A DNA stretch of 64,000 nucleotides from Enterobacteria phage Ac3, in sequence record OK040907, one strand, 5' to 3'. Positions 2,010 to 63,445 of the stretch are shown here, in pieces. The notes beneath the pieces were generated by a model. That model worked only from the letters and a program-made list of their open reading frames with translations, did not search any database and was not told the DNA's origin. The first letter of the stretch is position 1, and every line of letters begins with the position of its first letter. Position numbers and translations under genes: made by a program.

Positions 2010-3989
2010 ATGACTTTATTATCTCCGGGCATTGAGCTCAAAGAAACTACGGTTCAAAGCACCGTGGTTAATAACTCTACTGGTACAGCAGCTTTGGCCG
2101 GTAAATTCCAGTGGGGTCCTGCTTTTCAGATTAAACAGGTTACAAATGAAGTAGATTTAGTTAATACTTTTGGTCAACCAACCGCTGAAACTGCTGACTA
2201 TTTTATGTCTGCGATGAATTTCTTGCAGTACGGAAATGACTTACGAGTAGTTCGTGCTGTTGATAGAGATACCGCTAAAAACTCATCTCCGATTGCTGGT
2301 AATATTGAATACACAATTTCTACCCCAGGTAGTAACTATGCAGTTGGAGATAAAATCACGGTCAAATATGTTTCAGATGATATTGAAACTGAAGGTAAAA
2401 TTACCGAAGTAGACGCAGATGGAAAAATTAAGAAAATTAATATTCCTACTGCAAAAATTATTGCTAAAGCTAAAGAAGTTGGCGAATACCCAACATTAGG
2501 TTCTAACTGGACTGCAGAAATTTCTTCATCTTCTTCCGGTTTAGCTGCAGTAATAACTCTTGGAAAAATTATTACTGATTCCGGTATTTTATTAGCTGAA
2601 ATCGAGAGCGCTGAAACTGCTATGACAGCAGTTAATTTTCAGGAAAATCTTGAAAAATATGGAATTCCAGGAGTAGTAGCTCTCTATCCAGGCGAATTAG
2701 GCGATAAAATTGAAATTGAAATCGTATCTAAAGCTGACTATGCGAAAGGCGCTTCTGCATTACTGCCAATTTATCCAGGTGGTGGTACTCGTGCATCTAC
2801 TGCCAAGGCAGTATTTGGATATGGGCCGCAGACTGACTCACAGTACGCTATTATAGTTCGTCGAAATGATGCTATTGTTCAAAGCGTTGTTCTTTCAACT
2901 AAGCGTGGTGAAAAAGATATTTACGATAGTAACATCTATATCGATGACTTTTTCGCAAAAGGCGGCTCAGAATATATTTTTGCAACTGCACAAAACTGGC
3001 CAGAAGGCTTCTCTGGAATTTTAACTCTGTCTGGTGGATTATCATCAAATGCTGAAGTAACAGCAGGAGATTTGATGGAAGCTTGGGACTTCTTTGCTGA
3101 CCGTGAATCCGTTGATGTTCAACTGTTTATTGCGGGTTCTTGTGCCGGTGAATCTTTGGAAACAGCATCTACTGTCCAAAAACACGTCGTTTCAATTGGT
3201 GATGCTCGCCAGGATTGCTTAGTATTGTGCTCACCACCGCGTGAAACTGTAGTTGGAATTCCTGTAACCCGTGCTGTTGATAACTTAGTCAATTGGAGAA
3301 CTGCCGCAGGTTCATATACTGATAATAACTTTAATATTAGTTCAACCTACGCAGCAATTGATGGTAACTACAAATATCAGTATGACAAATATAATGATGT
3401 GAATCGTTGGGTTCCATTAGCAGCTGATATTGCTGGTTTATGCGCAAGAACTGATAACGTATCTCAGACTTGGATGTCACCAGCTGGTTATAATCGTGGC
3501 CAGATTCTTAACGTTATTAAACTTGCTATTGAAACTCGCCAGGCCCAACGTGACCGCTTATATCAAGAAGCTATCAACCCAGTAACTGGTACAGGTGGTG
3601 ATGGTTATGTATTGTATGGTGATAAAACAGCTACTTCTGTTCCTTCTCCATTTGATCGTATTAACGTTCGTCGTCTGTTTAATATGTTGAAAACGAATAT
3701 CGGACGTAGTTCAAAATATCGTTTGTTCGAATTAAACAACGCGTTTACTCGTTCTTCATTCCGTACAGAAACTGCTCAGTACTTGCAAGGAATTAAAGCT
3801 CTTGGCGGAATTTATGAATATCGTGTAGTTTGCGATACAACAAATAACACTCCGTCAGTAATTGATAGAAATGAGTTTGTTGCAACATTCTACATCCAAC
3901 CGGCGCGCAGTATAAATTATATCCAGCTTAACTTCGTTGCGACTGCTACTGGTGCAGATTTCGATGAGTTAACTGGTCTTGCTGGTTAA
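2010..3989 (+). CDS. 18: Contractile tail sheath protein
   Basis: 659 aa, same length as T4 gp18; strong RBS aagagga. Confidence 0.95.
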   Translation: MTLLSPGIELKETTVQSTVVNNSTGTAALAGKFQWGPAFQIKQVTNEVDLVNTFGQPTAETADYFMSAMNFLQYGNDLRVVRAVDRDTAKNSSPIAGNIEYTISTPGSNYAVGDKITVKYVSDDIETEGKITEVDADGKIKKINIPTAKIIAKAKEVGEYPTLGSNWTAEISSSSSGLAAVITLGKIITDSGILLAEIESAETAMTAVNFQENLEKYGIPGVVALYPGELGDKIEIEIVSKADYAKGASALLPIYPGGGTRASTAKAVFGYGPQTDSQYAIIVRRNDAIVQSVVLSTKRGEKDIYDSNIYIDDFFAKGGSEYIFATAQNWPEGFSGILTLSGGLSSNAEVTAGDLMEAWDFFADRESVDVQLFIAGSCAGESLETASTVQKHVVSIGDARQDCLVLCSPPRETVVGIPVTRAVDNLVNWRTAAGSYTDNNFNISSTYAAIDGNYKYQYDKYNDVNRWVPLAADIAGLCARTDNVSQTWMSPAGYNRGQILNVIKLAIETRQAQRDRLYQEAINPVTGTGGDGYVLYGDKTATSVPSPFDRINVRRLFNMLKTNIGRSSKYRLFELNNAFTRSSFRTETAQYLQGIKALGGIYEYRVVCDTTNNTPSVIDRNEFVATFYIQPARSINYIQLNFVATATGADFDELTGLAG

Positions 3990-4629: not shown

Positions 4630-6254
<1,625 letters not shown>

Positions 6255-6255
<1 letters not shown>

Positions 6256-6491
6256 TGGAAGGTTTAATTGAAGCTATTAAATCAAACGACCTCGTAGCCG
6301 CTCGTAAATTATTTGCTGAAGCCATGGCTGCAAGAACGACTGATTTAATCAAAGAAGAAAAAATCACTATCGCTCGTAATTTCTTAATCGAGGGTGAAGA
6401 ACCTGATGACGAGGATGACGACGAAGATAGCGATGATGATAAAGACGACAAAAAAGACAAAGACTCTGATGAAGACGAGGATGATGAATAA
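6255..6491 (+). CDS. 67: Prohead core protein with acidic C-terminus
   Basis: 78 aa, D/E-rich tail, position between 20 and 68. Confidence 0.85.
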
Positions 6492-6916
6492 TGATTCTAA
6501 TCCCTGAAACTCATGAATTAGTTCTCGAGAATGTCGAAGCACTTATTCCTGAAGCACAGGGTCGCTTTGACGAGTTGTCTTCTGCTTTAAATAAAGACGA
6601 TATAAATAAAATTATCGAGAATATGCTTGATGATGAAACTGATTTAGCGGTTGCATTAGCTTCTATTAATGAAAATATGCCGTTAAATGAATTTATCGTT
6701 AAACATGTTTCTGCCCGTGGTGAAATTACTCGCACTAAAGATCGCAAAACCCGCGAACGTAATGCATTTCAAACTACCGGGTTGTCTAAAGCAAAACGTA
6801 GACAAATTGCTCGTAAAGCTACCAAAACGAAGATTGCCAATCCAGCAGGTCAATCTCGTGCTCAGCGTAAGCGTAAAAAAGCTCTTAAACGCCGTAAAGC
6901 ATTAGGATTAAGCTAA
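6491..6916 (+). CDS. 68: Prohead core protein
   Basis: 141 aa, basic C-terminus, position as T4 gene 68. Confidence 0.85.
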
Positions 6917-7554
6917 TGAATGAACCCCAATTGCTAATTGAAACTTGGGGTCAACCTGGCGAAATTATTGATGGTGTGCCAATGCTTGAATCCCATGATG
7001 GGAAAGACTTAGGTTTAAAACCTGGTTTATACATCGAAGGAATATTCATGCAAGCAGAAGTCGTCAATAGAAATAAACGTCTTTATCCAAAACGTATATT
7101 AGAAAAAGCGGTAAAAGACTATATTAATGAGCAAGTTTTAACTAAACAAGCTCTCGGAGAATTAAATCATCCTCCACGCGCTAATGTTGACCCGATGCAA
7201 GCCGCTATCATTATAGAAGATATGTGGTGGAAAGGAAATGACGTATACGGACGAGCTCGTGTTATTGAAGGTGACCATGGTCCTGGAGATAAATTAGCAG
7301 CTAATATTCGTGCCGGATGGATTCCAGGAGTTTCTTCTCGTGGATTAGGTTCATTGACTGACACAAATAAAGGTTATCGTATCGTAAACGAAGGATTCAA
7401 ATTAACTGTAGGTGTTGATGCAGTATGGGGTCCAAGTGCTCCAGATGCATGGGTAACTCCTAAGGAAATTACAGAATCACAGACGGCGGAAGCCGATACA
7501 AGTGCCGATGACGCCTATATGGCTCTCGCAGAGGCCATGAAAAAAGCGTTATAA
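6916..7554 (+). CDS. 21: Prohead core protease
   Basis: 212 aa, order and length as T4 gp21. Confidence 0.93.
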   Translation: MNEPQLLIETWGQPGEIIDGVPMLESHDGKDLGLKPGLYIEGIFMQAEVVNRNKRLYPKRILEKAVKDYINEQVLTKQALGELNHPPRANVDPMQAAIIIEDMWWKGNDVYGRARVIEGDHGPGDKLAANIRAGWIPGVSSRGLGSLTDTNKGYRIVNEGFKLTVGVDAVWGPSAPDAWVTPKEITESQTAEADTSADDAYMALAEAMKKAL

Positions 7555-12379: not shown

Positions 12380-12391
12380 AATTAATCCTTA

Positions 12392-12670
12392 AAATGTAAT
12401 TTCTAACCAATCACCATCACGCTGATCACTATTGACTTTAAAATTAAATCCTTCTTTTCTCAGCCAATCACCAATTTCTTCAGTAATCAATTTATCACGA
12501 GCAGTACAATAATAACTAAAATATGTTTTACCTTGTTCAGCTGCTTTATTAGCAAGTTCTGAAAAATCTTTAATAAAACACTCTAGCTTAAACTGTTTAC
12601 TTTTTAATGCTTTTTCACGTAATTGATTAGCAAAAGATTCATTTTCATAAAGATTACACAGTGCCGTTTT
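12392..12670 (-). pseudogene. 93-codon open frame with protein-like translation but no ATG/GTG/TTG start; possible N-terminally truncated 24.2-like gene
   Basis: Manual translation ends ...RDGDWLEITF* 12 nt before rnlB start; frame opens exactly where the GC-rich block ends. Confidence 0.35.
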
Positions 12671-12869
12671 TCACCTTTTTGTTGATGTGACGTTTGCGGT
12701 AAACCACTTTTTCGCGGGTTTCGAACTTGTTTTTAGCGGTCATGGCACGTGCCCACAGAACGGCAACTTCTTTGGCCTGCAGGTTCAGTTCACGAGCAAT
12801 TTCGATGAAGCTTTTACCGGATTCGTGCAGGGTGAACACTACAACCTCGGTGCGCATAATCAATCTCAT
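12654..12869 (-). CDS. Small protein with helix-turn-helix-like segment; GC3-rich codon usage
   Basis: 71 aa ORF (67 aa from second ATG at 12857); codons ctg/cgt/acc/gaa dominate, unlike neighbours. Confidence 0.5.
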   Translation of the reverse strand: MRLIMRTEVVVFTLHESGKSFIEIARELNLQAKEVAVLWARAMTAKNKFETREKVVYRKRHINKKVKNGTV

Positions 12870-18674: not shown

Positions 18675-18700
18675 ATTTAGCTCCTTTATTTATCATATCT

Positions 18701-25284: not shown

Positions 25285-25315
25285 TTTGTGTTCCTCATGT
25301 TATGTCAGTAAGACT

Positions 25316-25345
25316 ACTATAACACAACATGAGGGACTTGTAAAC
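25316..25345 (-). promoter_or_regulatory. Early promoter: -35 GTTTAC, 18-nt spacer, -10 TATAGT
   Basis: Minus-strand GTTTAC at 25340-25345 and TATAGT at 25316-25321; part of the 54-bp repeat. Confidence 0.55.
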
Positions 25346-27402
25346 TACATTTTGAACTTTTTAGACATTCCGTTGATGTTAACCAAAGAAGCTAAGATTT
25401 GAGAAACTTCGTTTTCCTCTTCTTTTGATTCTTCTACAAGGAATTGATTAAATCCAGCCATTGGACGAACTTCACCAGTTTCCATTAGATGGTCGCCATC
25501 ATATACTGATTCTTCTAATTGTTCAGAAGGAGGAACGATTGTACCTTCGATTAGATACTTGTTATAAGCAGTTTCTTTCATAAAGTAAGTACTTACTTTA
25601 TTAATCTTCAGTAAAATTCCACGTGGTAGAATAACTTCAGCTTCTGATGGAAATCCTGATAAATGACCTGGAACGATAACTTTAACTCGTTCAGCTCCTT
25701 TAATTACCATACCCACGCTAGTTTCAGCATCTTCATTAGCATATGTAGAATGACTACCCATATGCATCAAATCTTCTGCATCAACGGAACCTTCTCCTTC
25801 ACCAGAAAATACTGCTCCGGAATTATCTAAGGCCATATAATTTTTACCATACTCACCAAAGATATTTGGTTTAAGTGATGTCGATACGAAGTTCTTGAAA
25901 TAGAACATTTTATTTTCAATGTTATGACGCAAAGTTTTAAAAGTAACTTCTTGTCCACGGTAAAGTGTAGTTCCTGGAGGAAGAACTGAACCTTTAGCGA
26001 ATGCAGAATCCAGCGTCTCAATATGTTTAATAGCTCGTTCCATATATTCTTCACGTGTAGAATCAGGTTTACCTAAAAGGAATGAGTTCATTTCAACATA
26101 CGAATCTGCGCAATAATCTTCAATTACATCAGACTCAGCCTGAGTCAATCCTTTTGGAGTTACTTCAGTGCTTGCATATTCATACGCCTGAGCAGCGGAT
26201 TCATCAATTAATTTATAAATTCCATTCATTACAAATTGAATAATAGCTGTCTTTTCATCTGGTGTAGCTTTAGAACCTTTAACTAAATCATTGATAATTT
26301 TCTTAATAACATCAAAACTATTAGAAATATTAATATCAGCAAGATCGCTTAAAATTTTATCAGTTTTGTAATTAAAGAAGTCTTTATTCTTTAAATATTC
26401 CTGGGAACCTTGATATGATGTATCGCTCTGCAACTTGATAGATGGATCGCGTAAACGCGCATGGGCTAATGCAATATGATTTCGGAAACTTTCTAGTTCA
26501 TAATCGTTAGATTTAAAACGAGAAGCACTTCTCATACCGCCGATAGCTCCTTTGCCGAAGTTTGAACCAATCTGAATAACGCCAGAGTTCATTGGTCCTT
26601 CTGCTTTATATACCGGAACTTTAGATTCAAATTCTTGATATTTCTTAGCAGCGAAGCTATCACCCTGAAGTGAAGCATCAACAGTAGAATATTGAGCTTG
26701 TGCTGCTAATCGACGACTAATTTTAGTTTTCTGAATAACAGCTTGATCCGTACGCTTATCATTTTCTAAAGCAATAGAAGCAGCAACTGCGACAGCTTTA
26801 GGAACAGCATTACCTGTTTTAACGTCTACATAAACATCACCGACTTTCGATTCAACTTTTGTGAATAACTCAGTTGAAATAGGAGGTACACCTGGAATGT
26901 CTTCTAAATTGGCATTTTTACGGTAAACCATAATATATGCATATTTCTTATCATAGTCCCAGATTTCCTTTAAAAGAACATATCGACCTGCTCCTTTAGT
27001 ACGTACTAAACGGTCAGCAATAACTTGCATTTGACGAGCAGCGCCATTTGTTTTACTTTTTAGTACGCGGAATAGGCATGCATCAATTTTATACTGTTTC
27101 ATTGTTTGAAGAGCAGTATCAAAAACCGCATTAATGACACCAATTGGATTTCCACCCAAGTTTTTAAGCTTAACTAACGATAATTTCTCATTAACACCTA
27201 TCATTACGATATGCATCATTTTGTCGCCTGGCTTAACGTTTTTATTCGTATCACCGCCAGAGGTGTATGTACAAAATCGAAATCCAGGAAGAACGCTTTC
27301 TTCACCGGCTTGAATAGCAAAAATTTGAGGTATTTTATGCTTAGGATTTAAGTTAACAACCGGCGCCGAAGCGCCGTCAAATAATTCTGTAATAAGTTCC
27401 AT
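25345..27402 (-). CDS. Alt-like ADP-ribosyltransferase paralog (alt.-1 position)
   Basis: 685 aa; shares N-terminal MELITELF and C-terminal ART motifs (YRGQ, FVSTS, EAEVILPRG) with the adjacent alt gene. Confidence 0.85.
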   Translation of the reverse strand: MELITELFDGASAPVVNLNPKHKIPQIFAIQAGEESVLPGFRFCTYTSGGDTNKNVKPGDKMMHIVMIGVNEKLSLVKLKNLGGNPIGVINAVFDTALQTMKQYKIDACLFRVLKSKTNGAARQMQVIADRLVRTKGAGRYVLLKEIWDYDKKYAYIMVYRKNANLEDIPGVPPISTELFTKVESKVGDVYVDVKTGNAVPKAVAVAASIALENDKRTDQAVIQKTKISRRLAAQAQYSTVDASLQGDSFAAKKYQEFESKVPVYKAEGPMNSGVIQIGSNFGKGAIGGMRSASRFKSNDYELESFRNHIALAHARLRDPSIKLQSDTSYQGSQEYLKNKDFFNYKTDKILSDLADINISNSFDVIKKIINDLVKGSKATPDEKTAIIQFVMNGIYKLIDESAAQAYEYASTEVTPKGLTQAESDVIEDYCADSYVEMNSFLLGKPDSTREEYMERAIKHIETLDSAFAKGSVLPPGTTLYRGQEVTFKTLRHNIENKMFYFKNFVSTSLKPNIFGEYGKNYMALDNSGAVFSGEGEGSVDAEDLMHMGSHSTYANEDAETSVGMVIKGAERVKVIVPGHLSGFPSEAEVILPRGILLKINKVSTYFMKETAYNKYLIEGTIVPPSEQLEESVYDGDHLMETGEVRPMAGFNQFLVEESKEEENEVSQILASLVNINGMSKKFKM

Positions 27403-27405
27403 GAT

Positions 27406-29502
27406 TTATCCTTGAACGAACTTGTAAGGCATGTTTGTAATATCTATGCAAGACGCAATAATTCCAAGAGATGATTCTACTTTCTGTTTAACGTTTGATG
27501 AAACAAATGATGCAAAGTCAACTCTGTCTTCTATTTCAGTATCACCTGTCATTGCAACTACTTCACCGGTTTCCATTAAATGGTCTCCGTCATAGATTAC
27601 CGATTCGGTGAGCTCTTCCGTGGTCATAACTTCAGCTTGAATGAGTTTTGTATTATTAGATGTTGTTCCGTCATTATTAGAAGCATCAGTTATTTTATTA
27701 ACTTTGACCATCAATCCACGCGGTAGAATAACTTCAGCTTCTGTTGCTATTCCGAGACTTCCTGGATATACAACATTAACTTTATGAGCTCCATCAATTG
27801 CCCATCCTATTTGAACTTTAACGTATTCAGGATTTTCTTTATACGCTCTTATTTCGTTTGGATTAATAGTTATTCCTTCTTCATTTTTATCAACTGTTAA
27901 TTCATTGCGAGCTTCTGGTTCTAAAAGACCAATACCAGCATGTGTGATTCCAAAACGTCCAAAAATGATAGGAGTTAAAGAAGTAGATACAAAATTTCTG
28001 AAGTAGAACACTTTATTTTTAACTAACGCTTCATATATAGGAGCAGTCATACTTTGAGCACGATAAACTGTAATGCCTTCTGGTATACGGTCACCATTTT
28101 CAAAAGCTGAATCTAAGTTATTTATAGCAGATTCAATTTCTTTTTCACTCATTACATCATATCGTTCTGGATTGTAACGACCTAAAAGAAGATTATTGAT
28201 GTCAGTATATCCTGAACCACAATATTCTCTAATGCCACGCTTTTGTGATGGAGTATATTTAGAACCATCGCGGGCAATAGTAATATCAATCATTGGACCA
28301 GCACCAATTCCAGAAAAACTGTAAATCATTCGTTTGAGGAATTTAGTTTTTGCTGCGTTCCAGGAATTTTTAGTTATTTCTTCCCAGACTTCATCTGGTT
28401 GTCCTTTACGATTTTTATTATGATTAGCAAGCCATTTATCTTTATAATCTTCAAAGAATTGATTTACAGCTGCTGCGTATTTCTCTAAACATTTTATTGA
28501 AGTAGTTGGTTCATTTTTAATTGCATTAAAAATTACTTCTTTAATTTTTTCTGAAACTTCACCGACTTGACTCATTGGAAAGAATTTATAATCATAGTGA
28601 AGTTCATCTGCCGTTCCTTCAGCAATAATTTTTGCTGCCTTTGTTTTAGAAGCTAATGAATTAATTCCAATTTTCATTTCTTCTGCTTCGGGAATTAAAG
28701 GTGCAGTAGCTGGTTTATTAAAATTAGCTGCTGTAGATTCATACTTCTGGAATAATTCACTTTCAAATCTAGAAGATTCCAATGACTGACTTTGTGCAAT
28801 TGCTCTACGGGAAATTTTAACTTTAACGATTACGGCTTGGTCAGAACGTTTATCATTTTCTTGTGCAATAGATGCAGCAATTGCCTCATTTTTGGTTACT
28901 TGAGCTCCAGTATCTTTATTGATATAAACATCACCGACCTTCGATTCAACTTTAGTAAAGAGCTCGGTGCTAATTTCTGGAACTCCTGGAATGTCTTCTA
29001 GTGATACATTTTTACGATGTATAAGAATATATGCATACTTTTTATCGTAATCCCAGAGTTCCTTAAGAAGGACGTATCTGCCACCTGAACGACTGCGGAT
29101 GAGTCTATCAGCAATAAGTTGAATTTGTCGAGCTTGACCTGCGGTTTTAGACTTAAGAATACGAAGCATGCAGGCATCAATTTTATATTGACGCATTGTT
29201 TGCATTGCAACAGTAAAAACTGAATTGATATAATTAATCGGGCTTGGACCAAGACCTTTTAATTTAGCAATTGAACCTTTAGCAGTTAATGTAAAAGGAA
29301 CAATATGCATCATTTTATCGCCCATCTTTAAATCACGATTAGTATCACCTCCAGATGTATAGGTACATAAACGAAAGCCTGGTTGTTCAATTGCATCATC
29401 AACATGAACTGAAAAAATTTGTGGTATTTTCTTCTTTGGATTTAAGTTTGTAATCGGAAGAGTAGTATCTTCGTCAAATAATTCTGTAATGAGTTCCATC
29501 AT
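27406..29502 (-). CDS. alt: Alt ADP-ribosyltransferase (injected with DNA, modifies host RNA polymerase)
   Basis: 698 aa (697 from second Met); matches recalled T4 Alt N-terminus; ART motifs YRAQ, FVSTS, EAEVILPRG. Confidence 0.9.
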   Translation of the reverse strand: MMELITELFDEDTTLPITNLNPKKKIPQIFSVHVDDAIEQPGFRLCTYTSGGDTNRDLKMGDKMMHIVPFTLTAKGSIAKLKGLGPSPINYINSVFTVAMQTMRQYKIDACMLRILKSKTAGQARQIQLIADRLIRSRSGGRYVLLKELWDYDKKYAYILIHRKNVSLEDIPGVPEISTELFTKVESKVGDVYINKDTGAQVTKNEAIAASIAQENDKRSDQAVIVKVKISRRAIAQSQSLESSRFESELFQKYESTAANFNKPATAPLIPEAEEMKIGINSLASKTKAAKIIAEGTADELHYDYKFFPMSQVGEVSEKIKEVIFNAIKNEPTTSIKCLEKYAAAVNQFFEDYKDKWLANHNKNRKGQPDEVWEEITKNSWNAAKTKFLKRMIYSFSGIGAGPMIDITIARDGSKYTPSQKRGIREYCGSGYTDINNLLLGRYNPERYDVMSEKEIESAINNLDSAFENGDRIPEGITVYRAQSMTAPIYEALVKNKVFYFRNFVSTSLTPIIFGRFGITHAGIGLLEPEARNELTVDKNEEGITINPNEIRAYKENPEYVKVQIGWAIDGAHKVNVVYPGSLGIATEAEVILPRGLMVKVNKITDASNNDGTTSNNTKLIQAEVMTTEELTESVIYDGDHLMETGEVVAMTGDTEIEDRVDFASFVSSNVKQKVESSLGIIASCIDITNMPYKFVQG

Positions 29503-37800: not shown

Positions 37801-39190
<1,390 letters not shown>

Positions 39191-39194
<4 letters not shown>

Positions 39195-40564: not shown

Positions 40565-40592
40565 AAAGTCCTCATGTTATGTCAGTAAGACT

Positions 40593-40622
40593 ACTATAAC
40601 ACAACATGAGGGACTTGTAAAC
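40593..40622 (-). promoter_or_regulatory. Early promoter: GTTTAC, 18-nt spacer, TATAGT (upstream of alc)
   Basis: Minus-strand GTTTAC at 40617-40622 and TATAGT at 40593-40598; part of the 54-bp repeat. Confidence 0.55.
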
Positions 40623-47562: not shown

Positions 47563-48521
<959 letters not shown>

Positions 48522-48574: not shown

Positions 48575-48934
48575 TTATATTATCTCCCATCGAAAAGGGT
48601 CAGGAGCATATCCGATAGAGTTAATCATTTTAACTAAAGTTACCATTCCTTTGTTAACTGCTTGTGCGATTTCATCAAAAACTTCATCGCTATCATCATA
48701 AAGGTCATTAAAAAGTTCTAACACGTTCTTCTGAACTTTTAATTTATGACCAACAATCTCGCCTACAGTAAATTCGTTTCCGCCGATTCCAGTGTAAAAC
48801 GTAATTACACCAGTTAACAGACTTTCGCGAGAATCTAGGTCATGTGATAAATTAATATAAGCCATCCCGGGTGCAGTTTTAAGTTGGCAACGAATTCTTA
48901 CTTGGGTAATTCCGGTTACATGAATGTCGGACAT
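48575..48934 (-). CDS. Hypothetical protein
   Basis: 119 aa from MSDIH with aaggaaa RBS; the longer track ORF runs back through the GC-rich ORF in another frame. Confidence 0.55.
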   Translation of the reverse strand: MSDIHVTGITQVRIRCQLKTAPGMAYINLSHDLDSRESLLTGVITFYTGIGGNEFTVGEIVGHKLKVQKNVLELFNDLYDDSDEVFDEIAQAVNKGMVTLVKMINSIGYAPDPFRWEII

Positions 48935-48944
48935 ATTATTTTCC

Positions 48945-49184
48945 TTAAGCTTTCTTGGCAACTTTCCAGTCAGCTTTGAACTGATCGACGTCGCTGTGAT
49001 GGATCCAGAAGCCGGAGCTGGAACCGTCTTCATAGAGTGGGCAACCGTCACATTCATCTTCCCAACCCATATCACGCAGGAGATGTTCTGCCTTTTCGAT
49101 CAGCTCGGAATCTTTACCAATGATGTTGAAGTACCATTTGCCGCGTACTTCAGAGTCTTTAATGGACTGACGCTGCAGACGCAT
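48945..49184 (-). CDS. Small Cys-containing protein with GC3-rich codon usage
   Basis: 79 aa from MRLQRQ with gaggag RBS and own early promoter; the 109-aa track ORF starts upstream. Confidence 0.55.
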   Translation of the reverse strand: MRLQRQSIKDSEVRGKWYFNIIGKDSELIEKAEHLLRDMGWEDECDGCPLYEDGSSSGFWIHHSDVDQFKADWKVAKKA

Positions 49185-49210
49185 TTTATTCTCCTCAAGT
49201 TGATAGGGTA

Positions 49211-49240
49211 ATAGTATCACACTACTACCCTGTTGTAAAC
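49211..49240 (-). promoter_or_regulatory. Early promoter: GTTTAC, spacer, TACTAT
   Basis: Minus-strand GTTTAC at 49235-49240 and TACTAT at 49211-49216. Confidence 0.5.
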
Positions 49241-49242
49241 AA

Positions 49243-49503
49243 TTATTTTTGAATTTTATCGAGCCACTTACCAAGCTTAATCATTTCTTTAGTAGCCTTT
49301 TCCATACTTCTGAACTTAACCAATAGAGGATAGGTATCGACACCCATAACTAAACTGGTTACAAGACTGTGTTCACCCACAAGCCATAACGAATACGTTT
49401 GAATATCGAGTCCGTAATTTCTGTCTTTATGGACCCGTACACCCATCACTTCAAATTTCTCACTAGCTTTTTCTACCGCATCCAGGAAATCATCTTTAGT
49501 CAT
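49243..49503 (-). CDS. Hypothetical protein
   Basis: 86 aa from MTKDD with aagg RBS; start adjacent to upstream stop. Confidence 0.5.
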   Translation of the reverse strand: MTKDDFLDAVEKASEKFEVMGVRVHKDRNYGLDIQTYSLWLVGEHSLVTSLVMGVDTYPLLVKFRSMEKATKEMIKLGKWLDKIQK

Positions 49504-49504
49504 A

Positions 49505-49891
49505 TTAGGCCTTAAAAGTTTTTCGCAAAAGTTCAATGATTTCATCTACATTGTTTTCGTCAACAATGCAGTGAATTTTTGTTACGCCAGAAACTATACC
49601 TTCATTAGCGGATTGAGGCTTTTCTAAAGTTACCTCAGTAAAGTATTTGAATTCTTCAGAGTAAATCTCAAAATACGTCTCAAGTGGGCCACCCGCCATG
49701 TATTCAGTACCATCTTCCATAGTTACACGTACCACACATTCACCAGCACAATCATCACTTTCCATTTCATCTACAACAAAACTAGGTCCGTGCTTCTCTA
49801 TTAAATTTAGCATCATTACATTGCAACGGCACTCGTTAGCAAAGTCATTTTTAAATAAAGGGTTAATGATATAAGTTTTTCCAACTTCCAC
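49505..49891 (-). CDS. Hypothetical protein
   Basis: 128 aa ORF. Confidence 0.55.
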   Translation of the reverse strand: MEVGKTYIINPLFKNDFANECRCNVMMLNLIEKHGPSFVVDEMESDDCAGECVVRVTMEDGTEYMAGGPLETYFEIYSEEFKYFTEVTLEKPQSANEGIVSGVTKIHCIVDENNVDEIIELLRKTFKA

Positions 49892-49937: not shown

Positions 49938-50168
49938 TTACTGTTCGATGAGACCCATGTAGAATTCCGCATCTTCGGAGTCCATACCGTCGCAGTATTC
50001 GTTAGCCATGAAGCGGGTCAGGTCCTCCAGTGGACCCTCAATAACAATGCTAAAGTTACAATAGTTCGGGTCATCATGGATGGAAGTAATAGACAGCTCC
50101 GGGTAACGGTTGCGGATAATTTCCTCGATGTATTCGAAATCAACGATGTCGATGTCTACTTTAGCCAT
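49938..50168 (-). CDS. Small acidic protein with GC3-rich codon usage
   Basis: 76 aa from MAKVDID with aggaaa RBS and own early promoter. Confidence 0.55.
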
Positions 50169-50211: not shown

Positions 50212-50241
50212 ATAGTACCATGGAAGGACAAGGATGTAAAC
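50212..50241 (-). promoter_or_regulatory. Early promoter: GTTTAC, 18-nt spacer, TACTAT
   Basis: Minus-strand GTTTAC at 50236-50241 and TACTAT at 50212-50217. Confidence 0.5.
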
Positions 50242-50314
50242 AGTTTTGTGAAAAAATTTTTGAAATAAAAAAGGGGACCTCTAGGGTCCCCAATTAATTA
50301 GTAATTATAATCTA

Positions 50315-51223
50315 TTACAGGTCGTTCAGGAGGTCATCCAGGTCGGTATCGTCGGCGCTGGAAGAGGAGCCGCTAGAGGAAGACATGAAGTCATCTTCGG
50401 TTTTAGTGTTAAAATCGTCAACGTTAAAGGCGTCCAGGTCATCCGCTACCTTATCGGCTTTCTTAGCCGCAGTAGCCGCAGCACCGCCCATCACAGCAGT
50501 GCCCATAACCTGACCGAACTTGGTGTTGAGTTCCTCAAAAGATTTAAATTTATCTTTGGAGGTCATCTCAGACAGATCTACCATCTGCTCAAACAGTTCT
50601 TTTTGGAAAGATTCGTCATCGATGTTCGGGATAGCAGACTGGTTCAGAAATTTGCTCTCGTCGTAATTGGAGAAACCAGAAACCTGTTTAACCTTCAGAA
50701 CGAAGTTGGCACCCTCCCACGGGCAGGTGACGTCGACCGGGGTTTCACCCATCTCCACGTCCACCGCAATCATAGCGTTAATTTTATCCCAGATTTTCTT
50801 ACCAAAGCGGTATTTGAAAACCTTACCCTCGTTTTCTGGCGCAGCTGGATCCTTTACAACCAGGATGTTAGCCCAGTAAGAGGTTTTACGTTTCACCAGG
50901 CCGTATTCTTTATTGTCGGTATTATACAGATCGTTTTTGGAAATGTACTGACACACCGGGCAAGAGTCGTAGTCGCCGTGGGTGGAAGAACAGTTTTCGA
51001 TGTACCATTTGCCGTTTTTCTTAAAACCGTGGTTCACCAGGATAGCGAACGGAGCCTGTTCGTCATTTTTGCTCGGCAGGAAGCGGATCACCGCCTGACC
51101 GTTGCCCGCGTTGTCCAGTTTCAGTTTCCATTCGCCTTTGTCCTCAGAGCTGAAGCCACCTTTGTTGCCCGCCAGCTTGGCCATCTGCGCAGCCAGTTCT
51201 GCCGTGCTCTTACGCTTGAACAT
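50315..51223 (-). CDS. 32: Single-stranded DNA-binding protein
   Basis: 302 aa; zinc ligands H/C/C/C in HGF...ENC...DSCPVC; acidic C-terminus; operator directly upstream. Confidence 0.95.
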
Positions 51224-58644: not shown

Positions 58645-59301
58645 ATGGCTGATTTAAAAGTAGGTTCAACAACTGGAGGCTCTGTCATTTGGCATCAAGG
58701 AAATTTTCCATTGAATCCAGCCGGTGACGATGTACTCTACAAATCATTTAAAATATATTCAGAATATAATAAACCACAAGCAACTGATAACGATTTCGTT
58801 TCTAAAGCTAATGGTGGTACTTATTTAAATAAAGTAATTTTTAATAAAGGAATGACTGTTCCTGGTGCTGGGTCAGGTGACAACGGTATTTTTGCCGGTC
58901 CTGGTGATAATGCCACATATGATACTACAAATATGGATATTGTTTCATGGTATGGTATCGGCTTTAAATCATCACAAGGGGCAGCAGGTAGAACTGTAGT
59001 AATTAACACACGAAACGGAGATATTAGCTCAAAGGGTGTAATTGAAGCATCACAAATACGCGCAACTTCGTTATCACCAGTAAATAATTATGACCTTACG
59101 AGAAAAGATTATGTTGATGGGGCAATAAATATTGTTACAACAAATGCAAACTCTAGAGTATTACGCTCTGGAGACACTATGACAGGAAATTTAACTGCGC
59201 CAAACCTTTTTTCACAGAATCCTGCATCTCAACCCTCGCATGTTCCGCGATTTGACCAAATCGTAATTAAGGATTCTGTTCAAGATTTCGGCTATTATTA
59301 A
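58645..59301 (+). CDS. 36: Long tail fibre distal connector
   Basis: 218 aa; GDTMTG fibre motif. Confidence 0.9.
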   Translation: MADLKVGSTTGGSVIWHQGNFPLNPAGDDVLYKSFKIYSEYNKPQATDNDFVSKANGGTYLNKVIFNKGMTVPGAGSGDNGIFAGPGDNATYDTTNMDIVSWYGIGFKSSQGAAGRTVVINTRNGDISSKGVIEASQIRATSLSPVNNYDLTRKDYVDGAINIVTTNANSRVLRSGDTMTGNLTAPNLFSQNPASQPSHVPRFDQIVIKDSVQDFGYY

Positions 59302-59309
59302 GAGGACTT

Positions 59310-62300
59310 ATGGCTACTTTAAAACAAATACAATTTAAAAGAAGCAAAACCGCAGGAGCACGTCCTGCCGCTTCAGTATTAGCCGAAGGTGAATTGGCTA
59401 TAAACTTAAAAGACCGTGTACTTTTTACTAAAGATGACCAAGGAAATATTATTGATCTGGGTTTTGCTAAGGGCGGTAGTATTGACGGGAATGTTATTCA
59501 TATAGGAAACTATAACCAAACTGGTGATTATACTTTAAATGGCGCATTAACTCAGACAGGTAATTTTAATTTAACTGGTATTGCTCGAGTAACTCGCGAT
59601 ATTATTGCCGCTGGGCAGATTATGACTGAAGGCGGAGAACTTATTACAAAAAGTTCAGGTACAGCGCATGTTCGTTTTTTCGATGGCAATAGTCGCGAAC
59701 GCGGAATCATTTATGCCCCGGCTAATGATGGTTTAACTACACAAGTACTTAATATCAGGGTTCAAGACTATGCCGCTGGTAGCGAAACGACTTATCGATT
59801 TTCAGGCAGTGGCCTATTTACTTCACCTGAAGTATCAGCATGGAAATCTATTTCGTCTCCACAAATTCTGACCGATAAAGTTATTACAAATGGGAAGAAG
59901 ACAGGCGATTATGATATCTATTCATTATCAAATAACACTCCAATGGCAGAAGGCGAAACGGCTATTAACCACCTCCGTGTTATGCGAAATGCTGTAGGAG
60001 CAGGTATTTTCCACGAAGTTAATGTTAATGACGGAATAACCTGGTATTCCGGACATGGCTTAGACACTTATCTTTGGTCGTTTAACTGGGCCGGTGGATT
60101 GAAAGCTGGTCATTCTATTGCTGTGGCCTTCCTCACGGTTCTAAAATTATTCAGAAATGGGCACGGCTTCTATTGCTTTAGGAGAGTAGATGATACCGGA
60201 TTTAAATGGCATCAGGATGGATATTATTTCAGCGTTAATAATGGAACAAAAACATTTTTATTTAGTCCTAGTGAAACAACTAGCCTAAGAAAATTTGTAG
60301 CTGGATATTCTACTAACGGAACCGATTTAACGACTCCTCCAACTGAAAACTATGCTCTTGCTACTGTCGTGACATATCACGATAATAACGCGTTTGGAGA
60401 TGGTCAGACTCTTTTAGGATATTATCAAGGCGGTAATTATCATCACTATTTCCGCGGTAAAGGTACTACAAACATTAATACTCACGGCGGTTTGTTAGTT
60501 ATTACTCCCGGTAATGTAGATGTGGTCGGCGGCATGGTTACCATTGATGGTAAAAATTATGCTTCTAGTGTGCTTTTTAAAGGAAATACTACAGGATATA
60601 GTTCAGTTGATAATATAGAGCTCAAAGTTTGGGGTGACACTTTTAATACAGTAGGTGGTACTCGTAAAAACGTAATGGAAACATCTGATGCTACTGGCTG
60701 GATGCATTATATTCAACGAACTACAGCAGGTAAAGTTGAGTCCTATTTAAATGGTACCATGAATGTAAATGAAAGCATCAACGTCAGTAAAGAAGTTAAC
60801 GCCTCTGGCACTATTGCTAGTAATGCTGTCAATGCGCTTCGCATTTGGAATGCAGATTATGGAGCTATTTTTAGACGTTCAGAAGGAAGTCTTCATATTA
60901 TTCCAACTGCTTATGGTGAAGGCAAAAATGGTGATATCGGTCCACTTCGCCCGTTTAGTATGGCTTTAGATACCGGTAAAGTTACTATTCCAGATTTACA
61001 ATCAAGTTACAATACGTTCGCTGCGAACGGCTATATTAAATTTGTTGGTCATGGAGCGGGTGCCGGCGGTTATGACATTCAATATGCTCAAGCGGCTCCT
61101 ATTTTCCAGGAAATTGATGGATGCTGTAAGCAAATATTTATCCCTATTGTTAAACAGAAGTTTTTAAATGGTAAAGCCGTTTGGTCTTTAGGTACTGAAA
61201 TTAATTCTGGTACATTTGTTTTACATCATCTGAAAGAAGATGGACACAAGGTCATACATCAAGATTTAATGCTGACGGTACAGTTAATTTCCCTGATAAC
61301 GTTCAAGTCGGTGGTGGTGAAGCTACTATTGCTCGTAATGGTAATATTTTCTCGGATATTTGGAAACTGTTTACTTCTGCTGGAGACACTACAAATATTC
61401 GGTGATGCAATAGCTACTCGTGTTGCTAAAGAAGGTGATACGATGACCGGTAGGTTGACTTTATCAGCTGGAAATGATGCACTTGTTTTAACTGCAGGCG
61501 TGGGTGCTTCATCACACATCCGTAGTGATGTAGGTGGTATAGGTAACTGGTATATAGGCAAAGGCGGCGGCGACAATGGTCTAGGTTTTTACAGTTACAT
61601 TACACAAGGCGGTGTATACATAACAAATAACGGCGAAATAGCGCTTTCTCCTCAAGGTCAAGGAACATTTAATTTTAATAGGGATCGCCTTTATATAAAT
61701 GCTAGTCAATGGGTTGCACATAAATCTGGCGCTTGGGGTGACCAATGGGGCTTAGAAGCTCCTGTATTTGTGGATTTTGGTAGTGTCGGTAATGATAGTT
61801 ATTATCCTATTATTAAAGGAAAATCTGTTATTACGAATGAAGGATACATATCTGGCGTTGATTTTGGTATGCGTCGCATTACTAATACATGGGCACAAGG
61901 TATTATTCGTGTAGGTAACCAGGAAAACGGTTCTGACCCACAAGCTATCTATGAATTCCACCACAATGGAGTTATGTATGTTCCTAACATGGTTAAAACC
62001 GGAGCAAGATTATCGGCTGGCGGTGGTGACCCGGTGTGGACTGGACCATGTCTTGTTATTGGTGATAATGTATCCGGATTAGTTCATGGTGGTGATGGGC
62101 GAATTAACATGGTTGCAAATGGAGCGCATATTGCTTCGTGGTCTTCATCTTATCATTCTCATCCTGGCCTTTGGGATTCAAACGGTGCTTTGTGGACGGA
62201 AGTTGGCAAAGCAGTTATTTCTCATGGTCATTTAGTTCAGGCGAATGACAACTATTCAACATATGTCCGCGATGTTTATGTCCGCTCTGATATTCGTGTT

Positions 62301-62621
62301 AAAAAGAACCTCGTTAAATTTGAAAATGCTTCTGAGAAGCTTTCTAAAATTAACGGTTACACTTATATGCAGAAACGTGGAACAGATGAAGAAGGTAATC
62401 AGAAATGGGAACCTAACGCAGGTTTGATAGCTCAAGAAGTTCAAGATATTTTACCAGAATTCGTTGAAGGTGACCCGGATGGTGAAGCTTTACTTCGTTT
62501 GAACTATAACGGTGTAATTGGTTTAAATACAGCTGCAATCAATGAGCATACTGCAGAAATTGCAGAACTTAAGTCAGAGATTGAAGAGCTTAAAAAATTA
62601 GTTAAATCATTGTTAAAATAA
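59310..62621 (+). CDS. 37: Long tail fibre distal subunit with C-terminal intramolecular chaperone-like domain; internal out-of-frame segment
   Basis: 1103 aa; conserved N-terminus [13 protein letters not shown]; C-terminal coiled coil; about 52 codons at 61245-61401 read in a shifted frame. Confidence 0.88.
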
Positions 62622-62626
62622 TAAGA

Positions 62627-62640
62627 GGGGCTTCGGCCCC
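62627..62640 (+). terminator. Hairpin ggggcttcggcccc after gene 37
   Basis: Perfect GC stem with UUCG loop. Confidence 0.5.
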
Positions 62641-62652
62641 TTGGAGGTTTAT

Positions 62653-63426
62653 ATGGCAGTTGAAGGACCGTGGGTAGGATGGTCTGCGAGGGTACAGACT
62701 GGAGATCCTTGGATGGGTGGTGCCGCGCAGAGATTGAGAATGGGAATTCCGTTTTGGATGAGTAATATGATAGGTCGATCTGTTGAAATAATTCACACGC
62801 TTGGAGCAGACCATAACTTCAATGGTCAATGGTTCCGAGATAGATGTTTTGAGGCAGGTAGTACACCTATAGTGTTTAATATCACTGGAGATTTAGTATC
62901 ATATTCTAAAGATGTTCCTTTATTCTTCATGTACGGAGATACACCGAATGAATATGTTCAGTTGAATATACACGGCGTAGCGATGTATGGCCGTGGCGGT
63001 AATGGCGGTAGCAATAGTCCTGGTTCAGCTGGAGGTCATTGTATTCAAAACGATATTGGTGGGAGACTAAGAATTAATAATGGCGGAGCTATTGCAGGCG
63101 GTGGCGGCGGTGGCGGTGGCGGTAACAGGGGTCGACTAGTATTTGGTGGTGGCGGTGGTCGCCCATTCGGTAGTGGCGGGTCTTCCCTCTCTCACATGAG
63201 TGCTGGTGCAACCGCCGGCACCATTTACGCTCCGGGTGCAGGATCTGTCGGTGAGGGGTCTCTTAGTGCATATACAGGCGGGTCTGGTGGTGAAGTTGGC
63301 TCCGCAGGAGGTAGAAATACTCACGGTACCGGTACAGAATATGACGGCGGAGCTGCTGGTTATGCTGTTATAGGGTCGTCTCCAACGTGGATAAATGTTG
63401 GAGCAATATATGGTCCAAGAGTATAA
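62653..63426 (+). CDS. 38: T2-type receptor-recognising adhesin with glycine-rich motifs
   Basis: 257 aa from MAVEGPW with ggagg RBS; poly-Gly stretches; conserved [22 protein letters not shown]. Confidence 0.85.
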
Positions 63427-63445
63427 ATGGTAATACCTCTCAGCA

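Follow-up and report, generated by a model that had tools for sequence, protein, structure and literature searches.

Gene content of the frd-gene 32 interval

The window, by which we mean the whole stretch of 64,000 nucleotides that was analysed, is a segment of a Tequatrovirus (T4-like) genome, and on its minus strand lie, in order, td, an RB32ORF229c-like ORF, frd, six small ORFs, gene 32 and gene 59. One of the six small ORFs is markedly GC-rich in comparison to its neighbours, and a sequence-only reading of this DNA had singled it out with the implication that it is a novel or extra gene of the interval. The features of this ORF and its surroundings are the following.

48945..49184, minus strand: frd.1 coding sequence, ATG start, 79 amino acids, TAA stop; DUF5417; protein identical to that of RB51; recoded
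49196-49191, minus strand: frd.1 Shine-Dalgarno sequence GAGGAG, six bases before the ATG; native, identical in RB51
49211..49240, minus strand: predicted early-type promoter of frd.1, with GTTTAC at 49240-49235, a spacer of 18 nucleotides and TACTAT at 49216-49211, preceded by TG
49205..49231, minus strand: 12-bp hairpin AGGGUAGUAGUG / UACUAUUACCCU, dG -15.2 kcal/mol, z -2.6; conserved in T4
48141-48482, minus strand: RB51ncORF236c, extra AT-rich ORF, named from the RB51 annotation
48575-48934, minus strand: RB51ncORF237c, extra AT-rich ORF, named from the RB51 annotation and with a match to DUF7247
49243-49503, minus strand: RB51ncORF239c, extra AT-rich ORF, named from the RB51 annotation
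50212..50241, minus strand: predicted early-type promoter of frd.3, GTTTAC-N18-TACTAT with TG; native, conserved in T4

The protein encoded by the GC-rich ORF matches Pfam DUF5417 (PF17438) with 118.7 bits (E=1.3e-34; cutoff 23.9), the match extending over residues 1-78 of the protein and positions 1-90 of the 91 in the profile, and it also matches phrog_1254 (E=1.9e-38). Genes annotated as frd.1 are found at the equivalent position in RB51 (protein accession ACP31154), RB14, Bp7 and RB43, and the T4 counterpart is NP_049851. As in the RB51 and T4 annotations, the ORF follows frd.2 and precedes frd, all on one strand, and it stands behind the same GTTTAC...TACTAT promoter, and six public contigs show the same gene order as RB51 and T4. 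Its product is 100% identical in amino-acid sequence to the Frd.1 proteins of RB51, RB68 and wV7 and agrees with that of T4 at 71 of 78 residues; homologues of Frd.1 were detected by tblastn in 1416 phage records. Judged by this sequence evidence, the GC-rich ORF is an ordinary and already known gene of the T4 family, frd.1, which is one of the conserved three of the interval, and its presumed novelty did not survive the comparison. The gene count given by the sequence-only reading was correct: by synteny with RB51 and T4, the window has six ORFs in the stretch that separates frd from gene 32, as against three (frd.1, frd.2 and frd.3) in T4. The additional ORFs are RB51ncORF236c, RB51ncORF237c and RB51ncORF239c, all of them AT-rich and all of them present in RB51, RB68 and wV7 as well. 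Full-text literature searches on frd.1, frd.2 and frd.3 in T4 and on DUF5417 returned nothing on Frd.1.

The early promoter (GTTTAC / TACTAT) and the GAGGAG ribosome-binding site that had been reported ahead of the ORF were both found at their sites. A promoter scanner recognised the former as TTTACA-17-TACTAT with 9/12 matches and an extended TG. Over positions 49185-49242 the window does not differ from RB51, and the promoter element GTTTACATCAGGGTAGTAGTGTGATACTATTACCCTATCAA occurs upstream of T4 frd.1 too. The frd.1 promoter is native and is predicted to be of the T4 early (sigma-70) type, and it is the T4 early-promoter consensus that underlies the designation of this promoter, and of the one preceding frd.3, as early. 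The frd.3 promoter comes just after the terminator of gene 32 (50273-50291), in the window as in T4, and the frd.3 mRNA of T4 has been reported among the abundant NAD-capped RNAs (bioRxiv 10.1101/2024.04.04.588121). The hairpin listed above overlaps the spacer and -10 element of the frd.1 promoter and could form in read-through RNA only. In T4 (NC_000866 segment, 3506-3643, minus strand) an unannotated mini-ORF of 22 codons, MFAPYIMAAVMLVCLYLLIKAC, hydrophobic and equipped with its own Shine-Dalgarno sequence, lies between the promoter and frd.1; neither the window nor RB51 has this mini-ORF. Elsewhere in the window there is a perfect intergenic repeat of 54 nucleotides, at 25292-25345 (upstream of alt.-3) and 40569-40622 (upstream of alc), which is present in RB51 too and which on the minus strand constitutes an early-promoter cassette (GTTTAC...TATAGT) with a Shine-Dalgarno sequence.

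Base composition of frd.1 and of four other genes

The jump in codon usage that had been noted at the 79-aa ORF is real. The GC content at third codon positions (GC3) of frd.1 is 0.537, as compared to 0.228-0.356 in the four adjoining small genes, and stands about 3 standard deviations above the window median of 0.25 (sd 0.09, n=79 ORFs); local GC rises from about 0.32 to 0.48 at the gene. The frd.1 genes of T4 and RB51 have a GC3 of 0.272 and 0.287, respectively, and those of six further public contigs 0.287. The same anomaly is seen in four more genes of the window, namely 24.3, RB32ORF217c, frd.3 and gene 32, for which GC3 values of 0.58, 0.60, 0.60 and 0.62 were obtained, and here again the native orthologues are AT-rich: the GC3 of frd.1, frd.3 and gene 32 is 0.27-0.28 in T4 and 0.25-0.29 in the RB51 versions. 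The codon adaptation index (CAI) for E. coli, calculated with the w values of Sharp & Li 1987, is 0.59-0.66 in the five genes (0.62 in frd.1) versus 0.22-0.33 in their neighbours, and 0.32-0.45 in the T4 and RB51 orthologues. The natural high point of the window is gene 23, which encodes the major capsid protein, with a GC3 of 0.36 and a CAI of 0.60.

Alignment of the window with RB51

The whole window was aligned with positions 96001-159999 of RB51 (FJ839693), so that RB51, and not an unmodified parent, is the reference for all of the differences described here. Outside the gp37/38 tail-fibre genes and five blocks of dense substitution, only 3 single-base differences were found in about 57.5 kb. 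The gp37/gp38 segment (59300-63430) diverges from RB51 and is 99.9% identical to the Ac3 partial record AF060870; this match, together with the near-identity to RB51, indicates that the natural background is a phage of the Ac3/RB51 type. Each of the five blocks falls within one annotated coding sequence (CDS), and all five of the encoded proteins are identical to those of RB51.

12654..12857, minus strand: 24.3 CDS, recoded; 100% amino-acid identity to RB51; GC3 0.58; difference block 12655-12854
38892..39194, minus strand: RB32ORF217c-like CDS (100 aa), recoded; 100% amino-acid identity; GC3 0.60; TGA to TAA; difference block 38893-39186
48946..49181, minus strand: difference block of frd.1; 54 substitutions relative to RB51, all synonymous, 41/54 at codon position 3
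49938..50168, minus strand: frd.3 CDS, recoded; 100% amino-acid and 77.9% nucleotide identity to RB51; GC3 from 0.25 to 0.60; difference block 49941-50157
50315..51223, minus strand: gene 32 (ssDNA-binding protein) CDS, recoded; 100% amino-acid identity; GC3 from 0.29 to 0.62; difference block 50318-51218

Nucleotide identity to RB51 is 77.5% for frd.1, with a change of the stop codon from TGA to TAA and of GC3 from 0.27-0.29 (T4 and RB51) to 0.54, and it is equally low for frd.3 (77.9%) and gene 32 (about 79%; 79.1-79.4%). As a natural yardstick, gene 32 of T4 and gene 32 of RB51 share 97.5% of their nucleotides and 98.7% of their amino acids. The differences are concentrated at codon position 3 (41/54 in frd.1, 45/51 in frd.3 and 167/190 in gene 32), and the others lie at first and second positions of the six-fold degenerate Leu, Arg and Ser codons. 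In 24.3, RB32ORF217c, frd.3 and gene 32, about 56-66% of the codons have changed. In frd.1 there are 43 changed codons, every one of them synonymous; since a random single substitution in this gene would be synonymous in only 18.5% of cases, the probability of such an outcome is about 1e-31. The sequence-only reading had named in advance what would speak against it, a sequence found unchanged at this locus in reference T4-like genomes; such a sequence exists for the protein (100% in RB51) but not for the DNA, for which the best match is 78.9%, and it is this discrepancy that is unusual about the gene.

The edges of the blocks respect the edges of the coding sequences, in that the differences begin after the ATG and end in or before the stop codon, with flanks that are identical to RB51. 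In frd.1 the first of them is at the opening base of codon 2 and the last at the second base of the stop codon (TGA to TAA). In 24.3 they start after the annotated ATG (12857), the upstream in-frame ATGAGATTGATT having stayed native, and the edge of this block accordingly tracks the annotated start and not the longest ORF. The intervening and neighbouring genes RB32ORF229c, frd, ncORF236c, ncORF237c and ncORF239c are 100% identical to RB51 in both nucleotides and amino acids.

A GC-richer gene that was acquired horizontally, as a foreign island in a hypervariable frd-32 interval, would explain the local rise in GC and would be at home in an interval that is prone to indels, as its six ORFs versus three attest; moreover, DUF5417 homologues with a GC3 of 0.49-0.68 do exist, on viral contigs of roughly 50 kb with a locus GC of 0.47-0.52, and the Klebsiella phages with matches to Frd.1 belong to this size class. 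Natural DUF5417 homologues follow the composition of their own genomes (GC3 0.25-0.44 where the locus GC is 0.36-0.41, and 0.49-0.68 where it is about 0.5). The composition of frd.1, however, shifts at codon 2 and shifts back at the stop codon, i.e., inside the CDS, with no junction repeats or mobile-element genes, and four unlinked genes show the same change. Frd.1 is, furthermore, 100% identical to its RB51 counterpart, as compared to just 44-49% identity with the Klebsiella phage homologues, and on this pattern of amino-acid identity the foreign-gene reading was rejected; we assign it a vanishingly small probability.

The three scattered differences from RB51 are one inserted nucleotide in the intergenic space that separates gene 26 from gene 51 (position 18699) and two SNPs, one in alt (position 28799) and one in frd.2 (position 49699), the latter with an amino-acid replacement as its effect. 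The genes alt (25345-27402) and alt.-2 (27406-29502) are tandem paralogues with about 68% nucleotide identity over some 700 nt, as they are in RB51.

Damage to overlapping signals

At two places the recoded sequence overlaps a signal that belongs to the next gene.

12654..12667, minus strand: 14-nt overlap of 24.3 and 24.2, in which recoding has turned the 24.2 start codon ATG into ACG
48941..48947, minus strand: overlap of the frd.1 stop codon with the Shine-Dalgarno sequence of the next gene, the DUF7247 ORF, whose ATG is at 48934

With the recoding of the 3' end of 24.3, the first residues of gene 24.2 (12389-12667) have become TALCN in place of MEQYD, and the gene as written has no start codon left. 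The change of TGA to TAA in frd.1 converts the Shine-Dalgarno sequence of the DUF7247 ORF, GTGAGGAA, into the weaker TTAAGGAA. The loss of the 24.2 start is collateral damage of a recoding that was blind to overlapping signals. The damaged start and Shine-Dalgarno sequence, along with the position of the 24.3 block edge, count in favour of a recoding that was guided by annotation.

Codon choice in the five genes

Seventeen codons that are rare in E. coli are not used at all after recoding when the five genes are pooled: AGA, AGG, CGA, CGG, ATA, CTA, CTT, TTA and TTG, and likewise GGA, GGG, CCC, CCT, AGT, TCA, TCG and ACA. Three TGA stop codons among the five genes have become TAA. The codon frequencies of the recoded genes resemble a table for highly expressed E. 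coli genes (CTG 0.80, CTC 0.20, AAC 0.89, ACC 0.71, GGT 0.57, GGC 0.43). Some swaps, such as ATC to ATT and GAC to GAT, are toward the poorer of the allowed codons, which is expected when codons are sampled from a codon table. The number of unchanged codons, 252/619, is close to the 264.7 +/- 10.2 expected if each codon had been drawn again independently of the native one. In the choice of new codons, no memory of the native sequence is left.

Natural translational selection, by which frd.1, frd.3 and gene 32 would be highly expressed early genes with codons adapted to the tRNAs of E. coli, was considered as an alternative reading. A strong promoter and a Shine-Dalgarno sequence stand at each gene, the CAI of 0.62-0.66 equals or exceeds that of gene 23 (0.60), and the codon usage of T4 genes reportedly varies by expression class. 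The T4 and RB51 orthologues are nevertheless without the bias (GC3 0.25-0.29, CAI 0.32-0.45), and the 3 differences in about 57.5 kb leave no time for >400 synonymous changes with zero amino-acid changes. The missing codon memory and the broken 24.2 start also speak against selection, to which we would accord almost no probability. Native codon adaptation was rejected, as the bias is not shared by the frd.1 genes of T4, RB51 or the six contigs. The resemblance to native highly expressed genes, which was to have disposed of the anomaly, is only apparent: the similar bias of gene 32 and frd.3 stems solely from the recoding that these two genes have undergone as well. The T4 genes do offer a parallel to this extent, that their natural heterogeneity by expression class likewise leaves some genes more host-adapted than others; that heterogeneity, however, is common to orthologues and involves modest GC3 values, whereas in the recoded genes of the window GC3 is double that of the orthologues, with the protein unchanged.

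Searches for the recoded DNA

In a nucleotide search of 50,697 phage records with frd.1, the best match reached only 78.9%. An exact 42-mer of the recoded frd.1 was absent from IMG/VR, GTDB genomes and JGI metagenomes, and an exact 54-mer of the recoded gene 32 was absent from IMG/VR and JGI metagenomes; the native frd.1 42-mer, which served as positive control, was present in IMG/VR. Six public contigs code for the same Frd.1 protein, and all of them (6/6) have the AT-rich version of the gene. A search of the literature for recoded T4 genes found only the work on T7 and PhiX174 that is discussed below, and nothing on a T-even phage in which the five genes had been recoded. In E. coli genomes and plasmids (PLSDB), the region from gene 32 to frd.1 was matched only at the gene 32 terminator. 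The matching region, 50235-50340, has 93% identity over about 105 nt with E. coli genomes and plasmids, and the match is presumably to the T4 gene 32 terminator as it occurs in omega-type cloning cassettes.

A chimera of the assembly or of the data, in which reads from codon-optimised constructs (e.g., plasmids of the propagation host) were merged with those of the phage, or constructs of this kind recombined into the phage, would likewise yield proteins with 100% identity and a synonymous recoding bounded by the CDS. Codon-optimised genes for phage ssDNA-binding proteins are commonly synthesised, and gene 32 is such a gene. Such a chimera would nonetheless require constructs for five separate coding sequences, three of which are tiny genes of unknown function, and it would have to leave junctions that are seamless at the ATG and at the stop codon with native flanks. 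Constructs that consist of a CDS only provide no flanking homology for recombination, and a search of PLSDB found no plasmid with a sequence of this kind. We consider a chimera very improbable.

Origin of the recoded genes

The combination of features observed in frd.1, i.e., an identical protein encoded by diverged DNA, differences bounded by the CDS, a purge of rare codons and the absence of codon memory, is the one by which a synthetic CDS is recognised. It is very probable that the native Frd.1 protein was back-translated from a table for highly expressed E. coli genes, together with four other coding sequences, and that the result is of human design, either as an engineered phage or in silico. 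We infer that the agent was a codon optimisation designed by humans and guided by annotation. In such a scheme, the early promoter and the Shine-Dalgarno sequence would have been left native and the frd.1 CDS behind them replaced by a synthetic back-translation of the protein; the same operation would have been carried out on 24.3, RB32ORF217c, frd.3 and gene 32, in each case starting with codon 2 of the annotated CDS and including the stop codon. The recoding would have followed the annotation, with nothing outside the coding sequences touched. No obvious engineering rationale stands behind the choice of the five genes, and this counts against a deliberate recoding, as does the failure of the literature search to find such a phage. 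The contrary proposition, that we are dealing with a natural isolate in which some natural process rewrites whole genes synonymously toward host-optimal codons and leaves the proteins and flanks untouched, deserves hardly any credence, albeit routes for it are imaginable, such as repeated exchange with copies that reside in the host and have been ameliorated by selection, or an RNA- or protein-templated resynthesis of genes.

Recoded phage genes are known from other systems. The refactored phage T7 is reportedly the one designated T7.1. T7.1, T7 gene 10 and PhiX174 resemble the window in that synonymous sequence from a codon table replaces native sequence within gene boundaries in an otherwise native genome. 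Gene 10 of T7 has been codon-deoptimised (PMC5592923), and in PhiX174 this has been done across the whole genome (PMC7881332). The T7 and PhiX174 studies de-optimised or refactored their genes for stated purposes, whereas the change in the window is toward the codons of highly expressed E. coli genes and, unlike in those cases, affects five scattered genes that are mostly of unknown function.

With synthetic back-translation as the origin of the anomaly, the biology of the locus is little changed, for frd.1 is a known gene of the T4 family in its usual place behind its usual promoter, and its biological novelty is low. Any conclusion about transfer, expression or novelty that is drawn from the composition of these five genes would be an artefact of the recoding. 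The comparisons employed here, namely of protein with DNA identity, of block edges with CDS edges, and of the genes with respect to rare-codon purging, loss of memory and damage to overlaps, amount to a test for back-translated genes in a genome that is otherwise natural. If the phage exists physically, it would be an unrecorded engineered T-even phage, with 24.2 knocked out as a by-product and gene 32 perhaps expressed at an altered level. For the five genes, translation would then be expected to be faster or less limited by tRNAs and mRNA decay to be changed, and one would also expect a loss of 24.2 expression and a weaker initiation of translation at the DUF7247 ORF.

The Frd.1 protein and the DUF5417 family

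An AlphaFold2 model of Frd.1, built on an alignment of 9 sequences, has a pLDDT of 79 and a pTM of 0.70. In it, two strands (residues 2-6 and 16-22) are followed by a helix (26-38), a loop of lower confidence (39-58), another strand (59-62) and another helix (63-78), and Frd.1 is predicted from this model to be a small beta-beta-alpha-loop-beta-alpha domain. The loop harbours a motif that is family-wide, D-x-C-P-x-Y-[ED]-[DE]-G...G-[FWY]-W, and the conserved core over 57 domain rows comprises F19, I21, D46, C48-P49, Y51, G54, G58, [FWY]59-W60, F69-K70, K74 and K77. One may guess that Frd.1 is an early host-factor or ligand-binding module with the acidic C-P-x-Y-[ED]-[DE]-G loop as its functional surface.

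Apart from the matter of recoding, it had been suggested that CDGC and HH form a metal-binding pair, which would make Frd.1 a metal-binding protein of the Cys2-His2 type. The motifs are indeed present (CDGC, residues 45-48; HH, residues 62-63), and among nine close T-even relatives C45, C48 and H63 are invariant, H62 being replaced by Y, C or R in four; T4 Frd.1 has YH where the protein of the window has HH. Many distant members of the family have extra cysteines at positions 50 and 57. The site as a whole is not conserved across the DUF5417 family: C48 is found in 53/57 rows, but C45 in 26/57, H62 in 6/57 and H63 in 11/57, and a metal site of this type is in our estimation unlikely.

A word-indexed protein search with Frd.1 retrieved close relatives only, and an exhaustive profile search for DUF5417 yielded 71 cluster representatives. 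Many of these are proteins of 250-630 aa that have the domain at or near the N-terminus, with a few in which it is internal. A Pfam scan of the long proteins detected no second domain, and no relative of the long forms was encountered in the GTDB genomes that were searched. In IMG/VR the long forms occur on viral contigs of 73-99 kb (e.g., ORFs 6001-7383 and 6001-7419), which are possibly phage-plasmids. On one contig with a long form, a ParM-like segregation gene is situated about 3.6 kb away from it, its other neighbours being unannotated.
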